A stretch of DNA of 64,000 nt from NCBI RefSeq assembly GCF_044324875.1, contig NZ_CP172185.1. The stretch is one strand, 5' to 3'. This document shows, piece after piece, positions 4,879 through 63,566 of the stretch. The notes under the pieces were generated by a model that was not told the origin of the DNA, made no database searches, and saw nothing but the letters and a program-made list of their open reading frames with translations. Positions within the stretch are counted from its first letter, which is position 1, and each line of letters opens with the position of its first letter. Origin of the DNA: Escherichia coli (GTDB lineage: Bacteria; Pseudomonadota; Gammaproteobacteria; Enterobacterales; Enterobacteriaceae). A program made the translations under genes and the position numbers.

Positions 4879-5065
4879 GGAGGGTACTACCTTCACTTCT
4901 ACCTCTGCCTCCCAAACTCCGTAAAACTCATGCACAATCACCATATTACAGTCAACCCGAACATTATGAGCTCCACTGAATTCTACTGTTCACCCCCTAA
5001 ATCAAGCATAAAATGGGGGCATATTTGGGGGCCCATTGTGTTCAGTCAGTTTCAGGAGCCCCCAT

Positions 5066-6253
5066 ATGGCACTTACAGCCAGACAAGTCGAAACAGCCAA
5101 ACCTAAAGACAAAGATTATAAACTCTCTGATGAACGTGGTTTATATCTGCTGGTAAAAACCACGGGAGCACGCTACTGGCGCTTTAAGTACAGGATAGCA
5201 GGAAAGGAGAAAAAACTGTCCTTCGGTGTCTATCCTGACGTCTCCCTTGCAGAAGCCAGAACCAAACGCGACGATGCAAGGAAAATTATCTCCGAGGGCG
5301 GTGATCCCGGTGAAAAGAAACGAAGGGAAAAACTCTCACAGAAAATCTCTGTCACCAACACCTTCCATGCTCTCGCAATCGAATGGCATCATCATAAATC
5401 TTTATCATGGTCTGACAGTTACGCCAGAAGCGTACTGGAAGCTCTGGATAAAGACGTTTTCCCGTATCTGAGCAACCGGAGCGTTACTGATATCCTTCCA
5501 CTGGAAATGCTGGAAATACTACGTCGAATTGAAAAACGAGGCTCTCTGGAAAAACTACGCAAGGTCCGGCAATACTGCAATCAGATTTTCCGTTATGCCA
5601 TAGCCACAGGACGAGCCACTGTCAATCCAGCCTCAGAACTGAGCAGCACGCTGGCGGCACCAAAAACCGCACATTTTCCCCATCTGAGAGCGGATGAACT
5701 TCCTGTTTTTCTCCGGAAGCTCGCTGACTATCACGGCAGTCCTGTCACTCGTATGGCTACAAACCTGCTGATTCTGACCGGGCTCAGAACGATTGAATTG
5801 CGACTGGCCGAATGGTCAGAAATTGATTCTAGCAACGCACTCTGGCATATCCCTAGAGAGAGAATGAAAATGCGCCGGCCTCATATTGTTCCTCTGTCAC
5901 GCCAGGTCATTTCTGTTCTGCAGGAATTACATGGTTTTACCGGACAGTATCGCCTTATGCTACCCGGACGTTGCGATGTAAACAAACCTATGAGTGAAGG
6001 CTGCATCAATATGGTGCTCAAACGTATCGGTTACGATGGCAGGGCAACCGGTCATGGTTTTCGTCACACCATGAGTACCATTCTGCACGAACAGGGCTTT
6101 AATTCTGCCTGGATTGAAATGCAGTTAGCTCATGTGGATAAAAACTCCATCAGGGGTACCTATAATCATGCACATTATCTCGATGGTCGCCGTAAAATGA
6201 TGCAGTGGTACGCTGATTACATTGATTCTCTTATGGGAAAAACGCACAAATGA
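5066..6253 (+). CDS. Tyrosine recombinase, P4-type island integrase
   Basis: ORF 5036..6253; likely start MALTARQVETAKPKDKDYKL at 5066 with AGGAG 8 nt upstream; P4-integrase N-terminal signature and C-terminal catalytic region (HGFRHT...Y). Confidence 0.85.
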   Translation: MALTARQVETAKPKDKDYKLSDERGLYLLVKTTGARYWRFKYRIAGKEKKLSFGVYPDVSLAEARTKRDDARKIISEGGDPGEKKRREKLSQKISVTNTFHALAIEWHHHKSLSWSDSYARSVLEALDKDVFPYLSNRSVTDILPLEMLEILRRIEKRGSLEKLRKVRQYCNQIFRYAIATGRATVNPASELSSTLAAPKTAHFPHLRADELPVFLRKLADYHGSPVTRMATNLLILTGLRTIELRLAEWSEIDSSNALWHIPRERMKMRRPHIVPLSRQVISVLQELHGFTGQYRLMLPGRCDVNKPMSEGCINMVLKRIGYDGRATGHGFRHTMSTILHEQGFNSAWIEMQLAHVDKNSIRGTYNHAHYLDGRRKMMQWYADYIDSLMGKTHK

Positions 6254-6803: not shown

Positions 6804-7746
6804 TCAGTTACCTGTTGCGTTTCCCCCGGTCTGATGAGCCAGAGACACAATGGTCTGTACCGTTCTGTTGATATTAAACCGGTATTCGATATCTTCTCTG
6901 GCGCTGGCAACCATCATCCTGAAGCGTTCCGGGCGGGACAAAAAATCCCGAAGCGCACTGGTCCATGCAGTCATATCTCCCACAGGTAAAAGTGTTCCTG
7001 TCACATTTTTCTGAATGGCATCCGGGATCCCGCCAGTCTCACTGGCAATAACGGGAACACCGGAGGCTGACGCTTCAGCCAGGACCATGCCAAATGCCTC
7101 ATTTTTCAGAAGGCATGATAGCACACTGGCAACCCGGTATATCGGTAACGCCGGGAAAACAGCACCAGCCATGAAAACATCACCACTCATTCCCAGTGAT
7201 TCAATCTGCAGGCGAAGGCGTTCTTCGTATTCCTCACGACCAGCGCCCACCACGAGCCATCGAAATACTTTCCCTTCCATCTTCAGTTGGTGCAACACCC
7301 GGAGCATAAATTCATGCCCTTTCTCGGGACGCAACATACCCACCTGGACAATCAGCGGGATATTGCCCGCTGATTCTGTCCATCCCTGAATATGCGGAGG
7401 TAACTGTTGCCTGACTTCTCTGTGTAATACAGAAACGATGCCAGCATATCAGACGGCTCAGGCCTGCAATGTTACTGTCATGACCACTGTGGCAGATTAC
7501 CAGATCAGGTCTGAATTACCGGATTACCTGCCGCAGTCTGATGATGGAAGGAAGGTGAAGACTGTTCCTGAAAGGAATAAAAGTAACATCATGTCCGATT
7601 GTTCTGGCTTCATGAGCTATTTTACTTTTTTCCCTGCAGGCGAGTAAAACAGAATGCCCCTGTTTCTGGAGCGCTGTCATCTGTGCCAGAGCCTGTAACT
7701 CCTGGCCACCAATATCTGGTGAAGACTCAGTGAATAAAATCTTCAT
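6804..7746 (-). pseudogene. Family-1 (GT4-type) glycosyltransferase, frameshifted
   Basis: N-terminal ORF 7516..7746 and C-terminal ORF 6804..7343 (motif EAFGMVLAEASASGVPVIASETGGIPD) are in different frames with stops between them. Confidence 0.6.
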
Positions 7747-8401
7747 TATTAATTCTCTGGTAATCTTGGCCCCTTATGAAGAGCCAGTAATGAAGAGAAA
7801 AATGGCGTGATATAATAAAAAGGCACCGTTTCAGCCAACCGCAATATTCCCGTTCTTTTGTACTAATACGTCCTATAAGTAATGAACCTTTTACAGGGCA
7901 GTTCATTCTTCTTTCCGTTGTATATAAATAAGATAAACCAAGTTCTCTGGTGAGATTAATATAATCTCTGCTATAATATCCTGCAGGCCAGCATAGATGG
8001 GGACTACAGTATCCCAGTTTTTCCTTCAGACATTGTTTGCCTGTCATAATAGCTTCTTCCATGAGTCGGCACTGCTCAGTACGTGGTACAGACAGTCTGT
8101 CCCAGCGTTTATGTGAATGGGTATGTAAATGGAATTCAACAAGACCGGAATCACGCATTTCCCGGACTTCAGACCAGCGAAGCATCACTTCATCGGAACG
8201 GTTATCTGCAATCAACTGCTCACAGTCGCGATGCGAATATTCCCGTTTCTGTCTGTAACGCACCTTCCCGTCACCAATCAACCCTGTAATGAGAAAAATA
8301 TGCGTATGAAGATTGTATTCCTTCAGTACCGGCCATGCCCGGAACCAGTTATCAAGATATCCGTCATCGAATGTAATCATGAAGCTCTTTCTTGGAAGCA
8401 T
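7727..8401 (-). CDS. Polysaccharide deacetylase (NodB-homology domain)
   Basis: 224 aa ORF with the TFDDGY motif near the N-terminus; 3' end overlaps the glycosyltransferase start (operon-like). Confidence 0.6.
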   Translation of the reverse strand: MLPRKSFMITFDDGYLDNWFRAWPVLKEYNLHTHIFLITGLIGDGKVRYRQKREYSHRDCEQLIADNRSDEVMLRWSEVREMRDSGLVEFHLHTHSHKRWDRLSVPRTEQCRLMEEAIMTGKQCLKEKLGYCSPHLCWPAGYYSRDYINLTRELGLSYLYTTERRMNCPVKGSLLIGRISTKEREYCGWLKRCLFIISRHFSLHYWLFIRGQDYQRINNEDFIH

Positions 8402-9417
8402 TCCCCCCTGATAAAAATATTAAAGTTCAGCGGATGTTACTGTCCGCCAGTTATTTTTTGCGAGCCACTCTATCTGTTCACAAAATATTTCAGGTGAAAG
8501 TGTCACAAGCCCCGGACAGCGACTGACATGATGGTACATCAGTACGGGAAGATGTCTTGCATTCAACATAAAGCATTATCACCAGTTAGTTATACAGTAA
8601 ATATACCCCGAGTAAAAACAGGGCGGTTTAGGATATGTCTGGCTCCGGGTATTCTACTATGTAATCAGGGAATAATGGACAATGAGAATACAACAGACAC
8701 TTTTAATATTTCCGACTGTTTATCAAAATAATTTTATCCTTTGTGAATATATTGTTTTTATCAGATGATTTACTTATTTTCCAGGAAAATAAAATCCTTC
8801 GATTTCAGGACACTCAGAGGAATATACCTGCTTCCGTCAAAAATCATAAAAACCGTGTCCCGATTAGTTTTAGCAGCAGGATCAAATGCAGTAATATAAT
8901 GATCTTATACCAGTAAGCCACTGGGAAATGCCCTCAAAATGTCGTGCACTGATTTTTCGGTTGAGAGCCTCATAATACCTAATATTACTGGCCGTAATAA
9001 TCCGGAGGCACAGCATAGCTTTCTTGTACAGAGGCATCATGATGAACAGGATTAATACCGTCACAGATGCACAAGTTTTACCCGTGATAAAGAATCCCGT
9101 TTTGTCCGCACTTGCCTGCGCCAGCGTTGAAAACGTGCCGGTTATTGTAGTTAAGTTATTGCCGCTAACTTTTTCACAACCCACCTATCCGGATATTTCC
9201 TTATTCTTCATATATTACATCTCATAAATTTAAATGTGAGTTTCTCATGGGTAAAATAAATTATACGAATCGCATCAATAGGAAAGACAGACGGTGCTGC
9301 CGATATAAAACGGGAAGTGACGGGATAAGCAGTTATGTGAATATTGTTTCAAAAAATGATATTTTGTGTTGTTAAAGTATAACTTTGCAATAAGCTATCC
9401 ATGATGGGATTCTGTAA

Positions 9418-9771
9418 ATGAACAAAACACTCTCTTCAATTCTGCTCATCTTCGGTATCTGTGCATCATCACTGGCTGCTGATAAAAAAGAACCGTCAGT
9501 TTTCCACGATGTGAAGGGCAGGAAGCATCGGCTGTTTCAGCCAGCGTCAAACGGAACTATCTCCAGAAACAGGTGCTTCACAGGAAAGATGACTAGGTGC
9601 TCCTCAGTCAGCAGCGTCCTGTTGTCTGGGTGAATCTTCGTGAGCTGGTAAGTAAAGGTGATAATTTAGTCACAGCGCATCTCACCGCCAGGGGGAATAA
9701 AGCCGATATTCAGTATCGGGTGCGCATTGACTGTAAGAACGAAAACGCTATCTGGCAGCGCCAGGGATGAA
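9418..9771 (+). pseudogene. Small signal-peptide protein, broken by frameshifts and an in-frame amber codon
   Basis: ORF 9418..9633 has an N-terminal signal peptide; the continuation ...VNLRELVSKGDNLVTAHLTARGNKADIQYR.../...VRIDCKNENAIWQRQG lies in other frames; family not recognised. Confidence 0.3.
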
Positions 9772-10267
9772 CGCTTGAAGATAACCACAGAGTATGAACA
9801 AACGGACTCTACATGTTCATTATGACTAAAAAAACGCTGCACGTTCTCTGTTTTATTTTACGTTGCTGTCATAACGTGTTTACCTCAATTTTCGGGAACG
9901 TGTTCTTAGCGCTTAGACTACCCCTGAATCTTCTGCTGTTGAAGGGCCGTAACAGGGTAAGTGATAACAGATGTCTGGACATATAGGAGCAAATTCACCG
10001 ATTTACTTAATCATGATGTTATTTTGTAAAATAAGCTGAGGGGAGTTTCACATAATGTTAGTTTTTGTGTAAACGCAAGAAGGAAAATCAATAAAATTAA
10101 TATATAGTTATATGTTGTAGGTGTGAGTATGACTGTTTGGCCGTGGAGTGCATTCCTAAATTAGGATTGGATCATTTAAGGTTTAACACATTATTAAATA
10201 CGGCAAATTACAGTAAAATACTTTGCCGTATTTAGAAATAAAATTAAATTTTTCTATAGAATATTAT

Positions 10268-10657
10268 TTATCTGAATTTTCGGTGGCCTTCCAGTTTTAT
10301 ATTATTCATTTTATCCAGAGCATCACGTAGTGACTCTATATTCCCCGACTCAACCTTCTCTTTTGCAAGATTGATTTCATTTTGTAGTTTCTTCAACTCA
10401 TTCTTATAACTTTCCACTGCGACTTTATCGTTGCTGTTTATTTTTTCAGGAAGAGTATTCATGGAAGCATTTACAGCTTTGTCCATCATATCAAGAGCAT
10501 TTAATAGAGATTTTTTATCACCAGAGGATTGTAGAGTGCTCATATTTCTTGCAAGGCTCTGCATATTTTTATCCAGTCCGGAAGCCAAAGATATATGACT
10601 GGTAGATAAACACATTACAAGTATAGAACTCACAATAAAGAATTTTTGTTTCTTCAT
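10268..10657 (-). CDS. Cytochrome b562-family periplasmic protein (divergent)
   Basis: 129 aa; signal peptide; four-helix-bundle-like sequence with Met near the mature N-terminus (DKNMQSL) and C-terminal ...EGHRKFR resembling the CybC ...YHQKYR heme-ligand region; AT-rich surroundings. Confidence 0.55.
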   Translation of the reverse strand: MKKQKFFIVSSILVMCLSTSHISLASGLDKNMQSLARNMSTLQSSGDKKSLLNALDMMDKAVNASMNTLPEKINSNDKVAVESYKNELKKLQNEINLAKEKVESGNIESLRDALDKMNNIKLEGHRKFR

Positions 10658-10954
10658 TAATTTACTCCTATTCGAAAGTGATTATCGTCATGGCAATTTA
10701 ACTTTATTATTCTATCTTTTATGGATGTACATCTCCTATATGGGTATACACAAGAAAATGTGATGCATTTCTAAAAACTATTCTACTTTATTCGGTATTG
10801 CTGAATGATTCACCATTAAGAAAATAGATATAACAGTTCTTTATTTCTTTTATTTAACATGGTTGTATTAAATATTCAACAGGTTTTCTAATACCAGTTG
10901 GGCTTTGTTGAAAAAATCTGATTTAGGGTAAGAGCCCCGTAGCTAGTTGTGCTT

Positions 10955-11560
10955 TCAGGCAATACGCACGCTCTCAGGCATACCTACTTTCGTGATTTTA
11001 TTCAGCGCTAGCGCCATGACCATACCCTCTGCAACCTGACCATCGTAGTCACGCAGCGTCAGTGAACCTCCGAACAACTGTTTTACCCGGTACATCGCTG
11101 TTTCCGCTATCGAACGACGGTTATAATCTGTTGTCCATTTACACCGGGCATTACTTCCGGTCAGCCGCTGATTAGCCACTGCACGGTTACGGTCTTCGTA
11201 TTCACCGGGCTAGTAACCCGCACCTTTTCGGGAAGGGGTAAGCGCGCTGATTTTCTTACGCCTCAGTTCATCGTGACAGAGTCGGGGGTCGTAAGCCCCG
11301 TCTACCGCTGCAGCCATGATTTTTCTGTGAGTCTGTTGGAGAAGCCCCGGGAAGGCTTCTGAGTCCGTGACGTTGTTCAGCGACAGGTCTGCACAGACAA
11401 TTTCATGTGTGTTGCCATCAACAGACAGATGCGACGCCCCTCTTTGCCGTGCTTTTTGGCTTTCCTTTCGCCTTCCCCAAAGACTTTTAGCCCGTTGGAA
11501 TCAATCACGAGGTGTATGATTTCACCCCGGGTGGGGATTTATGTATAAGAAACAGCGTAT
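10955..11560 (-). pseudogene. DDE transposase remnant (IS5/IS4-like), several frameshifts and an in-frame TAG
   Basis: Frames read ...LHLAVDSNTHEIVCADLSLNN... and ...RDYDGQVAEGMVMALALNKITKVGMPESVRIA; GAGY*PGEY amber at about 11210. Confidence 0.45.
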
Positions 11561-12006: not shown

Positions 12007-12327
12007 ATGAACAACAGCACACTGAAGAGCCGGACAATAAGCGACGCGACAGCGGAAGAACTCGAGAGCAGGGGACTGTGGCGACGTGCTGCCAGAAGGT
12101 GGCAGGATGTGATGATTACTCTTGAGAAAGACAGTCACAGACAGCTTGCAGTAATGAGAGCAAGGGAATGTATCAGGAAGGCAAAACGCCCGATACCTGA
12201 AAGCCGTATTGATATTCATACAGTCAGAAAGGCCGCAGACAGGACAATACAAAAAATGGGGCTACCGTCGCTTACTGATGAAATATGGCGCGATTACCCT
12301 GATAGCGTTAACGATGACGGTTATTAA
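12007..12327 (+). CDS. PerC-family transcriptional activator
   Basis: 106 aa; motif AEELESRGLWRRAARRWQDVM typical of PerC/Pch proteins; later KMGLP motif. Confidence 0.55.
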   Translation: MNNSTLKSRTISDATAEELESRGLWRRAARRWQDVMITLEKDSHRQLAVMRARECIRKAKRPIPESRIDIHTVRKAADRTIQKMGLPSLTDEIWRDYPDSVNDDGY

Positions 12328-14951: not shown

Positions 14952-15552
14952 TCAATCCTCTGATTTCAGTCTTTCAGCTGGAACAAACAAAATAACCGGA
15001 AATGTCCCTGCAAGAACAATCATTAAAGCAGAGATGGCCCCTTCTTCAAAAGTTCCACGGGCTGCTTCAGCATAAAGAAGTGTTACTGGCAGTTCTTTCA
15101 TCGCATCAGTGAAAACCAGCAGGGCACTGCTCACCAGAGCAACACAGGAAAGTGAACCCGAACAAAAGTTCCTGTACCATTTTCTCCCAGCAGACGTGAG
15201 GCTTGTTCCAGTGACGCTGGTATACGTCCCAGCCGGACATCAAGTGCGCCGATGGCTATTGCCTGAAATCGCATCGTACAGCAAATCACCAACAGGACAC
15301 CGACAGACATTAAAGGTAACCCCCTGTAATCCAGTAGTTCCGCCAGCCAGCGGTCATTTAGGGAGTCAGAAAACCAATCGCCAGAATCGTGCCCGGAAAG
15401 GCATAACCCAGCGACGCCCCTCTCATCACACCGCGCCTGAACAGTGGCATAGCGTTGAGGAATTCCGGGCATTCCAGACTACGAGCAGACTGACAAAAAT
15501 TACGACAAAGCGTTGAAGGAAGCCAGCGCGCGGACTGACAGGACTTTACCAT
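14952..15552 (-). pseudogene. ABC transporter permease remnant
   Basis: Hydrophobic ORFs 15358..15552, 15131..15472 and 14952..15134 in three frames, upstream of the ATPase remnant. Confidence 0.45.
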
Positions 15553-15822
15553 AAAAACACAGGCTAACCGCGCCTGCGTTTTTAATGACGGATGAAACAG
15601 AATCAGGTGCCGATTATGCCGCCGTCGGCTTTTACGATAACGACAGTTGAGGAGCGCGGACGACCAGCCTTATCGCCGTCAGGCCAGCTTGATACTGCCG
15701 TCGGATGCTGCGGATCGCTAAGCTGCGTATTCCGCTCTATTCGATCACGGATTGGCATCGAAGTCCGATCAGCGATTCGCATCCATTCGATCAACCGGGA
15801 ACTTAACTTTTTCTACCGCTTT

Positions 15823-16578
15823 TTAACGCGTTTTTTCGCTGCTTTCCACTACCGGGGGATTTTTCCTCAGTGACTCTCCCTGAAGGACCACTCGGTGTGA
15901 GTTATGTACCAGTCTGTCCAGGATGGCATCTGCTGTTGTTGGGTTCTCCATCAGACCATGCCATTTATCTACCGGGAACTGGCTTACCACTATCGTGCTG
16001 CTTTGTCCGTAACGATCCTCTATGAGCTCCAGAAGGTCATTACACTGGGCGTTACTTAACTGTTCCAGCCCCAGATCGTCCAGGATTAGAACCTGTATTT
16101 TTTGCAACTGTTTCAGATATTTCAGCCAGCTGCCATCAACACGTCCCTGAGCCAGTTGTTCCAGTAATCGCCCGGTTCTACAGTACCGGACGCTGTGTTT
16201 CTGTCGACATGCCTGTTCGCCCAGCGCATTGGCTATCCAGCTCTTGCCACATCCTGTCGGACCGGTTATCAGCAGGTTTTTCCTGTGGGTTATGTAGTGG
16301 CCGTTCAGCAGTTCTCTCATCTGTTCAGCCCGCAGACCTCTTGAGGCCGGATAGCGCAGCCCTTCCGGTGTTGCCTGGTATTTCAGGCCGGCATTTTTTC
16401 TCAACCGTGCCACACGGCTGTTTTCCCTGCTCAGAAGCTCGTCATCAACCAGCAGCGTCAGCCTTTCCTCGAACGACAGTTCGTCGTAGGTCTGAGGCGT
16501 TTCCCGCTGCCGTATCAGGCTCCCGGCCATCGCCGGGAGTTTCAGTTGGGTCAGTTTGTTTAACAGGTTATCACTCAT
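15823..16578 (-). CDS. IstB-like ATPase of the IS21-family element
   Basis: Walker A GPTGCGKS; likely start MSDNLLNKL at 16578 with AAGGAA RBS. Confidence 0.8.
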   Translation of the reverse strand: MSDNLLNKLTQLKLPAMAGSLIRQRETPQTYDELSFEERLTLLVDDELLSRENSRVARLRKNAGLKYQATPEGLRYPASRGLRAEQMRELLNGHYITHRKNLLITGPTGCGKSWIANALGEQACRQKHSVRYCRTGRLLEQLAQGRVDGSWLKYLKQLQKIQVLILDDLGLEQLSNAQCNDLLELIEDRYGQSSTIVVSQFPVDKWHGLMENPTTADAILDRLVHNSHRVVLQGESLRKNPPVVESSEKTR

Positions 16579-16594
16579 ACTGTTGTTCCTTCTG

Positions 16595-18130
16595 TCAGTG
16601 GTAGTAGCCCGGACCACGCAGGTTTTCATGCTCTGAAGCATATGCCGGATGTTGTTCGCCCTGGCGGGATAATGGAAGCTCCAGGTTCTCCCGATGGTGA
16701 CGCAGCAGATTGTCGATAAAGCGTCTGTCAGGGGCGTTATAGTGCAGGGCAACGTAACAGGCCTTTTCCAGCCGTTCCGGGCCGTATTTTTTCTGAAGTG
16801 CCAGCAGCCCCAGAACTGCACGATAAGCCAGTTCCGGATGGGGTTTTGCCTTCAGCATGGATTCAACCACCCGGCCTGTGGACGGGCCCGTACGTTTTCC
16901 CTGCTCGATCAGGCGTTCCGGTGTCCATGTCCCGTGCTGCCGGTGGCGCTCTGGCATGTGAAGCGGATTGGTTGTGTGTTTATATTCATGTGTGCTGCGC
17001 GGATGTTGCGCCACACACTGCCCCTTGTGCCAGAGCTGTACCACCGACTGCCCCGCCTTCAGTGACAGACGCTGACCGACCAGTTCGTGTGGAACGGAGT
17101 ACCAGTGACGGGCATATTCAACGTGGTAGTCAGGGCCAACCTTCACAGCTTTGTATTCCGTGTATTCATAAGGTGCCAGAGGCAGCGGAGAGAGTGCTGG
17201 CGCATCCAGTATGCGGAAGCGTTCTGCACGGGTTTGATTGCCGTACCCCTTCATTGGCCGGTTATTCATGTCTGTCAGTAACTCCCTAAGGCGCGCATTC
17301 AGCGCCCTGAGCGTGTGGAAGGTTTCATTACGGATGCGGGCAAGAAGCCATCGTTCAACGATGAGGACGCCGTTTTCTGCTTTTGGTTTATCTTTAGGTT
17401 TGCGTGGTCGGGCCGGGATGATAACCGTGCCATAGTGCTCAGCCAGTGCCTGATAACTGTCGTTGATGACAGGCTCATATCGATCGGCCTTTTTCACTGC
17501 GCTTCTGAGGTTATCGGGGATGAGCAGCTTCGGTACGCCGCCCAGGAAGGTCAGGCAACGGCTGTGGGCATTTAACCATGACATCATGTCCTGACCTTCG
17601 CACGCTTCAACGTAGGTATAGTTGGACGCCCCCATTACGGCCACGAAGATTGCCACGCGGCGTATCTCACCGGTGTCCGGATTAATAACAGGAACCGTAG
17701 GACCACAGAAGTCGATAAAAAGCTTTTCGCCGGCACGATGCTCCTGGCGCATGGAGAGACGTCGCGTTTTTTTCCACTCCCGGTAGCAACGGCAGAAGTG
17801 CGAGTATCCCATCGCTTTGTTACCCGCCTGTGCCTTGTATTCCATCCACAACAGTTGCCGCGTCACACCTGGTTTTCTCATTTCCGTATCGAAGTACAAC
17901 ATGTCAGGCATTACAAGCTCTGATGCAAAGGTGTCTTTGGGCGGAAAAATGAGTTTCTCCAGCGTGTCATGGGATATATCAGCAGGTAATGGCCATGACA
18001 GAGAAGAGGCTTTGAAGCGGGCAAGAACCTCAAAAACGGTTGAGGCGCTGATGTGTAACGTCAGTCCGATACAACGGTTAGTCAGCTTCTTGTCGAACTT
18101 GAGCTGAAGGATCTTAAAACAGGTTTCCAT
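16595..18130 (-). CDS. IstA-like DDE transposase of the IS21-family element
   Basis: 548 aa ORF; likely start METCFKILQ at 18130 with AGGAG RBS; N-terminal HTH and rve core. Confidence 0.8.
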   Translation of the reverse strand: METCFKILQLKFDKKLTNRCIGLTLHISASTVFEVLARFKASSLSWPLPADISHDTLEKLIFPPKDTFASELVMPDMLYFDTEMRKPGVTRQLLWMEYKAQAGNKAMGYSHFCRCYREWKKTRRLSMRQEHRAGEKLFIDFCGPTVPVINPDTGEIRRVAIFVAVMGASNYTYVEACEGQDMMSWLNAHSRCLTFLGGVPKLLIPDNLRSAVKKADRYEPVINDSYQALAEHYGTVIIPARPRKPKDKPKAENGVLIVERWLLARIRNETFHTLRALNARLRELLTDMNNRPMKGYGNQTRAERFRILDAPALSPLPLAPYEYTEYKAVKVGPDYHVEYARHWYSVPHELVGQRLSLKAGQSVVQLWHKGQCVAQHPRSTHEYKHTTNPLHMPERHRQHGTWTPERLIEQGKRTGPSTGRVVESMLKAKPHPELAYRAVLGLLALQKKYGPERLEKACYVALHYNAPDRRFIDNLLRHHRENLELPLSRQGEQHPAYASEHENLRGPGYYH

Positions 18131-18241
18131 AGTGCTCCTGGATTTTCTCTTTCTGGACATTGACGTCTCCACTGGTTTAAACACGGCAATGGAGACTGTG
18201 GTGAAAAGAGTTAATTCCCGGAGTGACTGGCAGGATGCCAA

Positions 18242-18365
18242 TCAATGATCGGAAGCATGCCAAATCGTGATCGATTGTGATGCCAAACTGTGATCGGAGA
18301 TGGATGCCAAATCATGATCGATTCGAATGCCAAACTGCGATCGATTCAGATGCCATTTTGCACTA
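18242..18365. repeat. Five tandem ~23-bp direct repeats (ATGCCAAAYYRTGATCGRWKNNN), terminal repeats of the IS21-family element
   Basis: Seen directly; inverted versions lie at the other IS end. Confidence 0.6.
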
Positions 18366-20227
18366 AGCCCTTCGCTTGGCTCGCCAGGGTGCTGGATGTT
18401 AATAAACAGCGTCCGGTTATCCGGAGTGAACGCGATGCCGGTGATTTCGCAGCCGCGCGGGCCGGTCAGGAAGCGGCGGAACTCATTGGTACCGGGAATC
18501 GTCGCCACCATCTGGTTGTTGCCCATGCCTTTGTAATCTTTAATATTTATGGTTGATGACGACACGTCGGTCTGGATCCATAGCACGCCGCGGTGATCGA
18601 AGCTCAGGCCATCGGCGCTGCCGAATTCCGCACCCTTCATGCTGCCTTTGGTTTCCGGTTTGTCTGTATCGGTGCGACCGCCCATCACAAGAATATCCCA
18701 GGCAAACTGCAGCGCGGTCGGGTCACCGTTATGCTCCAGCCAGTGAATGATGTGGCCGTAAACGTTTTTGGCGCGCGGGTTGGCCGCATCCACTGGCGCT
18801 TTTCCTTCCTTACCGCGATCGCTGTTGTTGGTGAGCGTGCAGTAAACGCTGCCGGCGTGATATGGATCGACCGCAATCCACTCCGGGCGGTCCATTTTAG
18901 TGGCCCCCACGGCGTCTGCCGCCAGACGGGTTTTAATCAACAGGTCGCCCTGGTTTTCAAACCCTTTACTGGCGTCGAGCCCATTTTGTCCGAACACCAG
19001 CGGTAGCCACTCGCCTTTGCCGTCGTCGTTAAATTTCGCCACGTACAGAGTGCCTTTTTCCAGCAGGTGCATGTTGGCTTTGCGATCCTGCGGGTTGAAT
19101 TTTCCTTCCGAGACAAATTTATATATGTATTCGAATTTCTGGTCATCGCCCATATAGACCACAACGCGGTTATCCGGGGCAATTGTCACCGCTGCGCCTT
19201 CGTGTTTGATGCGACCAAGCGCGGTGTGCTTGCGCGGCACTGAATGCGGATCGTATGGATCGATTTCCACCACCCAGCCGAAGCGGTTCGGCTCGTTCGG
19301 CGTGGCGTCGACGCTGAACCTTTTATCCACTTCGTTCCAGCGGTAAGAGTCGTCGCTCCCGCTGATACCGTAACGTTTTTCCAGCGGGTTCATCTCTGCT
19401 TTTTTTACGAAAATATCGGACCAGTTCTCTTCACACGTCAGATAGGTGCCCCACGGCGTAAATCCGTTGGCACAGTTCTGCATGGTGCCGAGAATGATTT
19501 CGCCTTTCGGATCGTCAACTGTTTGCATCAGTGGGTTATGCAGCGCCGGACCGGTGATTTTCATCGGCGTGTTAACGGTGATGCGGCGTGCGAACGATGA
19601 CGGGCGCACCACTTCCCAGCCCAGGGGCACTTTTTTTACTTCAATGACCGACACGCCCATCGCGTTCTGGCCTTTAAGAGCTTTATCGGCGCTCCAGTTG
19701 GCATCGCCATCTTTAAACAGTAGACCGTTATCGATGTATTCATGGTTTATGGCAAGCAGGCCGTGATCGGAGCTGTTCCCGCCCTGCGGCAGGCTAAACC
19801 ACGCCATGCCGTCGTGGTGCATCCCGGCCTGCGCCGCCTGTTCTTCCGTGGTGTTGCTACCGTCGGTTTTAAAAACCGGCAGATTTCCGGCAATCCCGGT
19901 GGCGTCGCCCCATTTGTAGAAGGGCTTCGCGATGTATCCTTCCGGCACGATAACGGTATCTTCCGTGGAAACCGGCAGGCTGGTGAAACCGAGCGTCGTC
20001 GCTTTGCCGAGGTTACCGCTTGCTTTGGAGACCACTTTCGCCAGCGCGTTTTCCTGTTTCAGCAGAAATGGGAACGCTGCCGCGGCACCGGCGACCGTGC
20101 CTGCCTGTAACAGACGGCGGCGTGACAAATAGACTTCCGCCACCTGCGAAAACGCGCGGTTATCGCTCGGGTTACTGATTTCTTCACTATGCTCACGTTT
20201 GAATAAAGTTTTTAACGGTCTGCCCAT
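18242..20227 (-). pseudogene. PhoX-type (DUF839) Tat-signal phosphatase, C-terminus replaced by the IS21-family end
   Basis: Twin-arginine motif LSRRRLLQAG; beta-propeller phosphatase-like body; the last ~40 codons of the ORF are encoded by the IS terminal repeats. Confidence 0.55.
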
Positions 20228-20649
20228 TGCGGTTTCCTTTCAAAAAATCGATTTCAAGGGGAATCATTTTTATGCACGTGAGTCTACGGAAAGATTGTTA
20301 CGGAAATATAACAATTGTCATAAAAAACCGGCGATAAAATCATCTATGGTCGGGACGCGGTTTCAGGTATGATGTGAGGCTAGAATTCTGAACGCTCTCT
20401 TTTGTTGAGCATATATGGACGTCCCAGATGAGGCAAGTACTGGTTCGATGCGGTTTGCGACCATATATCCGGCGTCGTTAGTAGGTTCAATGACCTGCGC
20501 CATGATGTTATCCGGGCCCTGTTTCCTAATCACTACACCGGTATTTGATTACCCAGGTCAACTTCAGACTGTTACAGGGGCGGTAGCCGTTATCTCATCA
20601 GTGAATGTAAACTCAGTTAAAAATATTTTCTATAACTTACTGTTTTTCT

Positions 20650-26681: not shown

Positions 26682-28769
26682 TCAGAACTGATAGTTCAGC
26701 GACATCCAGTAATTTCTCTCAGGTATCACATAACCCGTTGTCGATGCCCCCGTCTGGAAGTAATCACCCGCATAAAGCGTACCACTGCCGGCACGATACA
26801 GACTTACGTCACTGTAATCCTTGTTAAGCACATTATTCACCGCTGCATTCAGCATCAGTGCATCCGTCACTTTCCACGACATGCCCGCATCCAGTACCGT
26901 CCAGGCTTTCAGATATTCACCTTTCTCATCATACACTTTCTTCTGTACAGCTGAGAGTGACGAATAATTCTGGGTGAAACGTGGCGTTTTCCCGCGGTAA
27001 CGGGCACCCAGCCATGATGTCACCTCTTCAGTAATCTGCCAGTTCAGTTTCGCATTCACCATATGCTCAGGGGTGTAACTCAGTGGTGCACCTTTATTAT
27101 CCCCATCCCGTTGTTCACTCTGCGTCCAGGTATAATTCAGAGACAGAGTCACATCCTCTGACAACAGAGGCAGTGTGCCGGCAAATTCCACGCCCTGAGT
27201 CCTAGCCTTTCCGCTGTTTGTGTAGCTGCGGGTATTATCATCAATGGAATAAGATACGATCTTGTTGGAGAATTCTGTCATAAAGCCCGTGATATTGGCG
27301 TTCAGACCGGCATGATTATCGTAATACACGCCCGCTTCATAACTGACACTCTCCTCCGGCTTCAGGTCCGGGTTACCGAGAAGATTCGTACGCCCCTGAC
27401 CGGACACACCGCTGATCCCCTTATGTAACTGCCCCATGCTGGGCGCCTTATATCCCGTGGTCACCCCACCTTTCAGCGTCCACGCATCAGTCACATCCCA
27501 GACCATATATGCCCGGGGACTGAAGTGTCCTCCGAACACCTCATAGCGTTCATAGCGGCTACCCGCAGTCAGTGCAAATGCATCCGTGATATACCACTCA
27601 TCCTCAACAAATGCCGACCAGCTTTTCTGACGGAAGGTTTCACCAGTACTGGCGAGAACAACCCCGTCTTTCATGGAGGAGTTCTGATACTCACCACCGA
27701 CGGTAACCTTGTGTGATTCCCCCAGAGGTGCAAACAGTAATGAGCTCAGGATAAGATTCGACTCCTTAAGCTCCCTCGGCTGGCCGGCAAGCCCCCATTT
27801 ATCACGCTGCAGTACGCTACGTACAAGCTGACGGCCTTTATTTTCCGTCTCATTCCAGTTCAGGGATGACTTCCAGGCTCCGAAGGTGAATGTATGATCA
27901 TAGCCTGCTGAAATTTTATTACGCTCATAGCGCAGGGTGCGATCATAACCGCCCGTCAGACTGCCCAGCTGGCCATCTCGGTTATCATAACGCTGCCGGG
28001 CGATATCCATATCAATCCAGAGTACATCCTTGTCCGTCGCTTTCCAGTCAAGACGACCACCTGCATTATAATTCTGTGATTCCGTGGGATAAGGGATACG
28101 CGTAGCTGAGGTGTCGCTCAGTGATGTGACCGATGAGCCCTGACGCTGCTGTGTGCTGCCACGTACCTGAAGGCTGAGTGAATCATCCACAAGGGGACCG
28201 CTGCTCCAGAAATTAAACTGGCTGCTGTTCCCCCATTTGTTACTTTCCTGCAGGTTCAGCCCGGCATTAACCGAAGAGCGCCATTTGTCTGCATTCTTTT
28301 TGGTGATGATATTCACCACGCCCCCCATGGCATCAGAGCCGTACAGAGTGGACATGGGGCCCCTGATAATCTCAATACGTTCGATGGCGGCCAGAGGTGG
28401 CATAAAACCCGTATTCATGGCAGCATAACCGTTTGGGGTTACGTCACTGCTCCCGCCCTGACGGACACCATCGATCAGTATCAGCGTATAACTGGCAGGC
28501 ATTCCGCGGATGCTGATTTCCAGCCCACCTGTTTTACCCGTACCGCTTTCAACATCCACCCCCTCTACGGATCTCAGTGCCTCCCCCAGATCATGATACT
28601 GGCTGGATCGCAAATCCTCCTGGCTGATCACTGAAACACTCGCAGCTGCACTGGTTAATTTTTTTTCATAGCCAGACGCCGTGACTACCATCACATCTTC
28701 CGCAGCCATACTGCTGACTGAAAACCCGAGACAAGGGATGGCTACTGAAGCCAGAGTGGTTACTCGCAT
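26682..28769 (-). CDS. iha: TonB-dependent outer-membrane siderophore receptor/adhesin Iha (IrgA homologue)
   Basis: 695 aa; signal peptide; TonB-box/plug then beta-barrel ending ...YWMSLNYQF; closely matches Iha as recalled. Confidence 0.8.
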   Translation of the reverse strand: MRVTTLASVAIPCLGFSVSSMAAEDVMVVTASGYEKKLTSAAASVSVISQEDLRSSQYHDLGEALRSVEGVDVESGTGKTGGLEISIRGMPASYTLILIDGVRQGGSSDVTPNGYAAMNTGFMPPLAAIERIEIIRGPMSTLYGSDAMGGVVNIITKKNADKWRSSVNAGLNLQESNKWGNSSQFNFWSSGPLVDDSLSLQVRGSTQQRQGSSVTSLSDTSATRIPYPTESQNYNAGGRLDWKATDKDVLWIDMDIARQRYDNRDGQLGSLTGGYDRTLRYERNKISAGYDHTFTFGAWKSSLNWNETENKGRQLVRSVLQRDKWGLAGQPRELKESNLILSSLLFAPLGESHKVTVGGEYQNSSMKDGVVLASTGETFRQKSWSAFVEDEWYITDAFALTAGSRYERYEVFGGHFSPRAYMVWDVTDAWTLKGGVTTGYKAPSMGQLHKGISGVSGQGRTNLLGNPDLKPEESVSYEAGVYYDNHAGLNANITGFMTEFSNKIVSYSIDDNTRSYTNSGKARTQGVEFAGTLPLLSEDVTLSLNYTWTQSEQRDGDNKGAPLSYTPEHMVNAKLNWQITEEVTSWLGARYRGKTPRFTQNYSSLSAVQKKVYDEKGEYLKAWTVLDAGMSWKVTDALMLNAAVNNVLNKDYSDVSLYRAGSGTLYAGDYFQTGASTTGYVIPERNYWMSLNYQF

Positions 28770-58765: not shown

Positions 58766-59290
58766 TTATGGGATGATACCACAGGCAATTCTTGCACCAC
58801 CGCCACCTAGAGGTTCAGGATGGTCATCATGATTATCACCTCCTGCGTGGAGCATTAGCGAACGGCCATCGAGCTCCTTTAATTCAGATAGTCTTGGCGC
58901 AAGCACCGGGTAGGTTGCTTTTCCGTCATGAGTGACATAAAGCGCAGGGAGATCACCCAGGTGGCCATCAGGAGACCATGGACCGAGATGCTTCCCTGTT
59001 TTTTCCGGGTCAAAGTGACCACCTGCAGATAAAGCAGCGACAGTTTTTCCATCTTTCAGGGCAGGAGCACAACTTGCGTTTTCATGTACATGAAAACCAT
59101 GAATGCCGGCGGGTAAGGAGTGAAGATCAGGGGTGAACAGCAGCCCGTAGGGTGTCTTCTGGATGGTTATTTTACCAATATTTCGCTCTTTTCCGTCACT
59201 ATCAACAAGATTCATTGTTACATCTTTGGTGGCTGCATATCCACAGGATGATGTAGCCAGAATCACAAAGGCAATAAGTTTACGTTTCAT
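58766..59290 (-). CDS. sodC: Periplasmic Cu/Zn superoxide dismutase (island-borne, divergent from chromosomal SodC)
   Basis: 174 aa; signal peptide; metal-ligand motifs HGFHVHE and [12 protein letters not shown]. Confidence 0.85.
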
Positions 59291-62651: not shown

Positions 62652-63566
62652 ATGCACTCAATAAAAAAATTAACCATGCTCTTGGGGTTCCTCGCCCTCA
62701 CCTGCTCGATCGCATTTCAGGCGAGTGCAACTGAAAAATTCAAGGTCATTACAACATTTACCATCATCGCAGATATGGCCAAAAACGTGGCTGGAGATGC
62801 TGCAGAAGTCTCATCCATAACCAGGCCCGGTGCAGAAATTCATGAGTATCAGCCTACCCCTGGCGATATTAAACGTGCGCAGGGGGCACAACTGATTCTC
62901 GCCAACGGTATGAATCTGGAATTGTGGTTCCAGCGCTTTTACCAGCATCTCAGTGGTGTTCCAGAAGTGATTGTCTCTTCGGGTGTGACGCCAGTAGGGA
63001 TCACCGAAGGCCCCTACGAGGGAAAACCTAACCCTCATGCCTGGATGTCGCCAGATAATGCTTTGATTTACGTCGATAATATTCGTGATGCGTTGATAAA
63101 ATACGATCCGGCAAATGCAAAAACATACCAACGTAATGCCGATACTTATAAAGCCAAGATTACCCAAACCCTTGCCCCCCTGCGTAAGCAGATTGCTGAA
63201 CTCCCTGAGAATAAAAGATGGATGGTCACCAGTGAAGGGGCTTTTTCTTATCTCGCACGCGATTTGGGGCTAAAAGAGCTTTATCTGTGGCCGATAAATG
63301 CCGATCAACAAGGAACACCCCAGCAGGTACGTAAAGTGGTTGATATAGTGAAGAAAAATAATATCCCAGCGGTATTTAGTGAGAGTACGGTTTCCGATAA
63401 ACCAGCGCGTCAGGTTGCGCGTGAAACCGGCGCACACTACGGCGGTGTGCTCTATGTCGATTCCCTGAGCACAGAAAACGGCCCGGTACCTACGTATATC
63501 GACCTTCTGAAGGTTACTACCAGTACGCTGGTGCAGGGAATTAAAGCCGGGAAAAGGGAGAAGTAA
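62652..63566 (+). CDS. sitA: Mn/Fe ABC transporter periplasmic binding protein SitA
   Basis: 304 aa; signal peptide; TroA/ZnuA-like cluster-9 binding protein; followed by an ATPase gene. Confidence 0.8.
   Translation: MHSIKKLTMLLGFLALTCSIAFQASATEKFKVITTFTIIADMAKNVAGDAAEVSSITRPGAEIHEYQPTPGDIKRAQGAQLILANGMNLELWFQRFYQHLSGVPEVIVSSGVTPVGITEGPYEGKPNPHAWMSPDNALIYVDNIRDALIKYDPANAKTYQRNADTYKAKITQTLAPLRKQIAELPENKRWMVTSEGAFSYLARDLGLKELYLWPINADQQGTPQQVRKVVDIVKKNNIPAVFSESTVSDKPARQVARETGAHYGGVLYVDSLSTENGPVPTYIDLLKVTTSTLVQGIKAGKREK

Follow-up and report, generated by a model that had tools for sequence, protein, structure and literature searches.

What is a cytochrome b562 gene doing in a decaying island of the Escherichia coli chromosome, and does it still encode a working heme protein? 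The question is raised by a small open reading frame (ORF) on the minus strand of a 64,000-nucleotide stretch of E. coli DNA, which we refer to as the window. A preliminary description, made from the sequence alone, had read this ORF as a divergent, island-encoded relative of the periplasmic cytochrome b562, CybC. The ORF is intact from ATG to stop, and its 129 codons occupy exactly 10268..10657 (-). Its product matched the Pfam family PF07361 (Cytochrom_B562) with an E value of 6.7e-16 and a score of 59.2 bits (cut-off, 30 bits) over profile positions 2-102 of 102, which indicates that it is not a chance ORF, and its sequence matches in the PDB were E. coli and Salmonella b562 chains (best E value, 5e-4). 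An ORF of 55 aa on the opposite strand (10431..10598) was also considered but found no support.

The protein had been described as small and secreted, and its N terminus fits that claim. Codons 1-25 (10583..10657, -) appear to encode a signal peptide, MKKQKFFIVSSILVMCLSTSHISLA, that precedes an SG cleavage site; by inspection, it has a KKQK n-region, a hydrophobic core, and an SLA/SG site that aligns with the SFA/AD cleavage site of CybC. The resulting 129-aa precursor would yield a mature protein of 104 aa with a predicted periplasmic location. Since the N terminus aligns with both the signal and the cleavage site of CybC, the predicted ligand methionine takes position 7 after cleavage, just as it does in CybC.

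We aligned 28 family members taken from an exhaustive HMMER search, CybC included, and found six columns that are invariant in all 28, among them Met32, Met58, Pro70, and His125. Met32 (mature Met7; codon at 10562..10564, -) and His125 (mature His100; codon at 10283..10285, -) align with Met7 and His102, the axial ligands of CybC, so that the heme ligands said to be retained are indeed in place; Met58 and Pro70 align with CybC Met33 and Pro45. Other heme-pocket positions of the 256B structure, namely L3, L10, F61, F65, R98, Y105, and R106, are either kept (L3, L10, and R106) or conservatively replaced (F61 by Y, F65 by L, R98 by K, and Y105 by F). Some pocket residues differ (N11 to A, P46 to E, and Y101 to G), and these same positions vary among bona fide family members.

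An AlphaFold2 (AF2) model built on the 28-member alignment had a pLDDT of >90 over the mature part, with values of <50 for residues 1-24, and placed helices at residues 28-44, 48-66, 78-103, and 107-128 in an antiparallel four-helix bundle. The model superposed on E. coli b562 with a TM score of 0.90 and an rmsd of 1.4 A. When the PDB was searched with Foldseek, the best 30 matches were all b562 or b562-derived constructs with TM scores of ~0.9, including 256b, 2bc5, and 4er9 (TM, 0.88-0.91; rmsd, 1.3-1.6 A over 104 columns). The preliminary description had proposed comparison of a predicted structure with CybC as a check, with the lack of a b562-type bundle or of an axial ligand to count against it. 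Since the bundle and both aligned ligands are present, the b562-like reading stands. Judged from the alignment and the model, the window gene is a real, intact gene for a secreted, four-helix b562-family protein whose predicted Met/His heme site is intact.

The term "divergent" is also fair, since the window protein is only ~20% identical to CybC and scores below the NCBIfam equivalog cut-off. Given that its score against NF011632 (CybC equivalog) is 70.9 bits relative to a cut-off of 130, the window gene is a paralog of cybC rather than its ortholog. The protein carries the annotation "cytochrome b562" in public records (WP_001354052.1), and the exact sequence is found under that name on at least 1,000 public contigs. 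The identity of the gene is thus already known and catalogued, and there is nothing new in it. Absent from the preliminary description were this public name and the linkage of related genes to genes for secreted catalase-peroxidases, described below.

The gene lies off the conserved core chromosome, in an integrase-bearing island adjoining ynjA. At 99.9% identity, the DNA of the b562 locus was found in only 29 of 5,426 complete E. coli genomes, in each case as part of the chromosome, which agrees with the description of the gene as island encoded and horizontally carried. In near-identical genomes, ynjA is followed by a tyrosine integrase gene (window 5036..6253) and then by a long, mostly decayed stretch. 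Its first part comprises a phosphoethanolamine-transferase fragment, frameshifted GT4 and polysaccharide deacetylase genes, a split yebF-like gene, the b562 gene, and an IS5 fragment. Beyond the IS5 fragment lie an SSB fragment, PerC, a ProQ/FinO fragment, IS66 and ABC-transporter fragments, PhoX, and ICE remnants, and further genes include iha, an AmiC paralog, group II intron reverse transcriptases, IbrB/PAPS-reductase, periplasmic SodC, and sitABCD. The b562 gene itself is flanked by the frameshifted yebF-like gene and, beyond a non-coding, AT-rich stretch 5' of the gene, by the IS5 fragment. The G+C content is 0.31-0.32 over 10001..11000, compared with ~0.45-0.55 in the flanks; both the AT-rich DNA and the transposase debris noted earlier (the IS5 fragment, IS66 and IS21 elements, and frameshifted genes around b562) were thus recovered.

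Two stretches of the island indicate where the b562 segment came from. At 6804..8569 (-), just above the phosphoethanolamine-transferase fragment, lie frameshifted ecf2-like (GT4) and ecf1-like (polysaccharide deacetylase) genes, which were assigned from their identity to pO157 and from Pfam and which RefSeq annotates as pseudogenes. Over window positions 7044..8621, they are 81-85% identical in nucleotide sequence to pO157 (L003 14243-15986), and the order b562, ecf1, ecf2 and their orientation are the same in the window and in pO157. Since the frameshifted genes are in the pO157 order, the island holds a decayed piece of a virulence-plasmid LPS-modification operon. On the other side of b562, a PhoX phosphatase gene (18242..20227, -; PF05787, E value of 1e-165) is 92.7% identical in nucleotide sequence to its counterparts on four plasmid-like contigs (L010-L013), in which a 73% identical b562 allele (P0046) follows PhoX at a distance of 1.2 kb. 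The window has the same order and orientation, with the PhoX-b562 module (15502..20373 region, -) split by an insertion of ~2.6 kb with IS21-like ORFs (15724..18362) and by ~4.8 kb of fragments. This synteny with the pO157 ecf genes and with the plasmid PhoX contigs points to a plasmid-derived module as the source of the b562 segment.

Other genes of the island were noted in passing. An intact PerC-family transcriptional activator gene (12007..12327, +; PF06069, E value of 6e-28) lies 1.4 kb from b562, between the SSB fragment and the ProQ/FinO fragment, and this stretch looks like the remnant of a plasmid leading region. The island also carries an extra copy of a periplasmic Cu/Zn superoxide dismutase gene (58766..59290, -; PF00080, E value of 6e-32), sitA, the start of sitABCD (62652..63566, +), and iha (26682..28769, -). 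On the island, b562 is thus clustered with genes that act in periplasmic oxidative stress and metal uptake, although many IS elements lie between them.

The signals around the b562 gene were examined on the minus strand. A Shine-Dalgarno sequence, AGGAG, can be read 7 nt 5' of the ATG (10665..10669, -), and it is kept as AGGAG or AGGAA in the plasmid alleles. A candidate -10 element, GATAAT (10681..10686, -), is TATAAT in the plasmid alleles and belongs to a block conserved across the window and two related loci, L002 and L014; the -35 element upstream of it is weak. The -10 assignment is tentative because a scan for consensus sigma-70 promoters did not report it. That scan found no promoter directly upstream of the b562 gene, and the number of sigma-70 sites in the b562 region was not above that in shuffled sequences. 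Starting 34 nt past the stop codon, RNA folding predicts a hairpin whose core stem (10195..10234, -) is likely a terminator; its folding energy is -20.7 kcal/mol (z = -3.76 relative to shuffles), its stem is conserved in L002 and L014, and its tail is A/U-rich without a clean T-run. These elements belong to a conserved "cassette" of ~550 bp (10197..10748, -), defined by blastn, that consists of the gene with ~90 nt upstream and ~70 nt downstream. Over exactly this span, the cassette is 77% identical to L002 and 87% identical to L014, and neither match extends past it.

The likely terminator sits between the b562 gene and the convergent YebF-family gene (9418..9770, +), which shares it. The latter gene is split by a frameshift into an ORF with the signal peptide (9418..9633) and an ORF with the YebF domain (9597..9770; PF13995, E value of 1.4e-11), and in RefSeq only the latter half (57 aa) has a protein annotation. 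We considered a functional link between the two convergent genes and rejected it, since the yebF-like gene is frameshifted and lies beyond 10197, where the homology between b562 alleles ends.

Several b562 lineages besides cybC are found in the accessory DNA of E. coli: the island type, the alleles 71-73% identical to it, the PhoX-linked P0046, the pO157 type, P0055, P0063, and P0065. The 71-73% alleles were found on ~87 plasmids and the pO157 type on ~499, and the 72% plasmid allele lies ~3.5 kb from a cluster of iron-type ABC transporter and MFS genes. One allele, P0012, is recombinant: when L014 7904..8449 was compared with window positions 10200..10748 and with L002, the promoter region and signal peptide corresponded to the plasmid (72%) allele, and the DNA of the mature part was identical to the island allele. 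Judged from neighboring accession numbers, at least 7 of 20 listed island-bearing genomes also carry a 71-73% plasmid allele, and strain ECCNB12-2 was confirmed to carry both; this co-occurrence may be a lineage effect. More distant homologs (27-28% identical) were found on conjugative elements, one between an SLT gene and psiA/psiB of an F-like plasmid (L017 5001..5384) and the other adjoining TraG/TraU genes (L016 5001..5390). The carriage of b562 genes on mobile DNA is therefore wider than the subfamily considered next.

In this subfamily, the b562 gene is repeatedly found 28-53 nt downstream of a PF00141 catalase-peroxidase gene: on pO157, in L005 (P0055), in L006-L009 (P0063), and in L015 (P0065). 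The linked enzymes are 730-738 aa long, and each has an N-terminal Sec-type signal peptide. These KatP-like enzymes are 74-87% identical to each other, while their b562 partners are only 32-57% identical. We did not find such adjacency to be a general b562 trait: KatG adjacency was rejected as such because none of five members outside the subfamily (P0066, P0067, P0069, P0073, and P0086) showed it. In three of the four katP-b562 spacers, a G+C-rich inverted repeat was observed just before the b562 Shine-Dalgarno sequence (L003 6554..6599, L005 5963..6000, and L006 5948..6000; example arms, GAGGGAGG..CCTCCCTC and CAGGGGGAG..CTCCCCCTG), and this repeat may act in attenuation or in mRNA stability and so fix how much b562 is made relative to KatP.

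We defined the KatP/KatY-linked subgroup from gene neighborhoods, as b562 genes lying <60 nt downstream of a gene for a secreted catalase-peroxidase. The window gene has no such neighbor, and it groups with this subgroup in the phylogeny. In a neighbor-joining tree of the mature regions (200 bootstraps; Yersinia CybC left out), the orphan alleles of island and plasmids formed one clade in 200 of 200 bootstraps, and this clade joined pO157 L7018 and P0055 in 199 of 200. Because the wider group that adds P0063 and P0065 appeared in only 111 of 200 bootstraps (55%), KatP linkage is weakly supported as the ancestral state. When the window and the surroundings of the 72% plasmid allele were searched by tblastn with KatP at E values up to 10, no katP remnant was detected, so both alleles are orphans. 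A KatP partner elsewhere in the genome, if there is any, was not obviously present: the 42 complete genomes with an L005-type katP-b562 pair by megablast included none of the 20 listed island-bearing strains, a weak test that misses the pO157-type katP. From its sequence, then, the window b562 is a member of a mobile E. coli subfamily whose other lineages are coupled to secreted KatP genes, and this linkage hints at a role for the subfamily in peroxide defense.

Published work also concerns these relatives. The Y. pestis katY-cybC-cybB operon is co-transcribed, as verified by RT-PCR (PMC2231364), and the pO157 L7018 protein has been detected in the infected piglet gut, where it was up 6.3-fold (PMC3686733). 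Our searches of the literature on katP with b562, L7018, catalase-peroxidase with b562, and cybC function returned omics tables only and no functional study.

The explanation that best joins these observations, and that we consider probable, is that the window gene encodes a periplasmic heme b carrier of a mobile, KatP-linked subfamily, orphaned on a plasmid-derived island module. The protein would be exported by Sec and cut by signal peptidase after Ala25, and its 104 residues would fold into an antiparallel four-helix bundle that holds one non-covalent heme b between helices 1 and 4, with Met32 and His125 as axial ligands. Such a low-spin, six-coordinate heme b would presumably carry one electron at a time by alternating between Fe(II) and Fe(III). 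The periplasm lacks the usual cytoplasmic reductants, and the ancestral job of the subfamily may have been to serve KatP there, most plausibly by supplying electrons to its oxidized intermediates, although no b562 is known to pass electrons to a KatG-type enzyme. The Yersinia operon suggests that such electrons could come from the quinol pool via CybB or a similar membrane cytochrome. A module of plasmid origin, with PhoX, b562, and the ecf genes, would have brought the window copy to the chromosome within the integrase-bearing island adjoining ynjA, and this island has since decayed. It would now be an orphan that lost katP and kept its own ribosome-binding site and terminator, and it may either work in trans with something else or be on its way out.

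A more specific proposal is that the mobile b562 paralogs are dedicated partners of KatP and form, together with a CybB-like cytochrome, a periplasmic chain from quinol to peroxide, analogous to the chain of cytochrome c and cytochrome c peroxidase. We regard this as rather unlikely. If such a chain did operate, orphan copies may supply the function in trans or may have been recruited by some other periplasmic enzyme of oxidative stress.

Instead of carrying electrons, the protein could bind, buffer, or deliver heme in the periplasm as part of the iron and heme economy, either holding heme b for Sec-exported enzymes such as KatP or sequestering free heme. The Sec-type signals of the KatP-like enzymes suggest that these acquire their heme in the periplasm, and in iron-starved Y. 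pestis, the level of CybC, which is listed with Fur regulation, goes up 3- to 4.7-fold while that of KatY drops (PMC2835676). Iron-related genes are also found nearby, namely iha and sitABCD on the island and the iron-type transporter cluster ~3.5 kb from the 72% plasmid allele, but IS elements lie between these neighbors and b562, and the neighbors change from one context to another. The invariant bis-axial Met/His pair is moreover the signature of a stable electron-transfer site rather than of a transfer site for heme, and we know of no b562 with heme-transfer activity. We therefore find a heme-delivery function distinctly unlikely. That the bundle binds no heme at all and was recruited elsewhere, perhaps to bind a metal or to act as an adaptor between proteins, is scarcely credible. 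The identity to CybC of only 20%, the replacements N11 to A, P46 to E, and Y101 to G, and the fact that apo-b562 is itself folded (PDB 8den is among the Foldseek matches) would permit such a shift, but both ligands, Met58, and Pro70 are invariant in every clade, the replaced positions vary in bona fide members, and the sequence gives no sign of a new site.

The gene might also be intact in appearance only, an unexpressed chance survivor that has no present function in its host while the island around it decays. Nearly all of its neighbors are pseudogenes, with frameshifted or truncated ecf1/ecf2-like, phosphoethanolamine transferase, yebF-like, and IS5 sequences on its flanks; the island is present in only the 29 complete genomes; the promoter scan was empty directly upstream; and the G+C content of 31-32% is typical of H-NS-silenced DNA, so H-NS may silence the b562 gene. 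Against this, the ORF has stayed intact on at least 1,000 contigs while its neighbors decayed, and every heme-site residue has been kept. Conservation between alleles extends to the Shine-Dalgarno sequence, the -10-like GATAAT/TATAAT, and the stem of the terminator, and the pO157 homolog, L7018, is made in vivo. Relative to the plasmid allele, the dN/dS ratio is 0.23 (0.21 for the mature part; pS, 0.45; pN, 0.145), a value that mostly reflects history before the decay of the island. The window b562 appears from these comparisons to be still under purifying selection, and we consider it very unlikely to be such a survivor; the evidence as weighed favors a maintained gene.

Taken alone, the window gene only adds another annotated copy of a well-known small heme protein and carries little weight. 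Cytochrome b562 is among the most used model proteins and engineering scaffolds (BRIL fusions and metal-directed assemblies), and our literature searches did not find an established physiological role for it. The statement in the preliminary description that horizontally carried b562 paralogs have no established role likewise agrees with these searches, which found no functional study. The recurrent katP-b562 pair on virulence plasmids and islands offers a concrete, testable lead to a role for b562, and this lead also bears on how pathogenic E. coli and Yersinia use periplasmic heme peroxidases. If true, the reading of b562 as a partner of KatP would give the protein its first function. The window copy is a natural "orphan" control in katP-b562 experiments.

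Among the known systems closest to it is CybC (PDB 256B), with which the window protein shares PF07361, a Sec signal, the length class (128 versus 129 aa for the precursor and 106 versus 104 aa for the mature protein, CybC given first), a ligand methionine at mature residue 7, the four-helix bundle (TM, 0.90; rmsd, 1.4 A), the Met/His ligands, and the equivalents of Met33 and Pro45. It differs from CybC in its ~20% identity, in a loop between helices 2 and 3 that is two residues shorter, and in its location, a rare island rather than the core cybC locus. L7018 of pO157 (UniProt O32554), whose gene starts 46 nt past katP on the virulence plasmid of EHEC, belongs to the same subfamily as the window protein, with 50% identity between the precursors and 56% between the mature parts, the same length, and the same gene order relative to ecf1/ecf2. 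In contrast to L7018, which is coupled to katP and has been detected as a protein in vivo, the window gene is chromosomal, lacks katP, and has an upstream region of its own.

The katY-cybC-cybB operon of Y. pestis, with a gene for a periplasmic catalase-peroxidase followed by a b562 gene, has the arrangement of the sister lineages of the window protein and adds cybB, the gene for a membrane cytochrome b561, whereas the window locus has neither katY/katP nor cybB adjoining it. The nearest paralogs are the 71-73% identical alleles on IncK2/Z and other plasmids (WP_045146805 and relatives). Like the window gene, they are orphans without katP, and they share with it the ~550-bp cassette with its ribosome-binding site and terminator hairpin, although their flanks and signal-peptide sequences differ. 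These plasmid alleles co-occur with the island allele in at least seven of the listed strains and have recombined with it, as P0012 illustrates.
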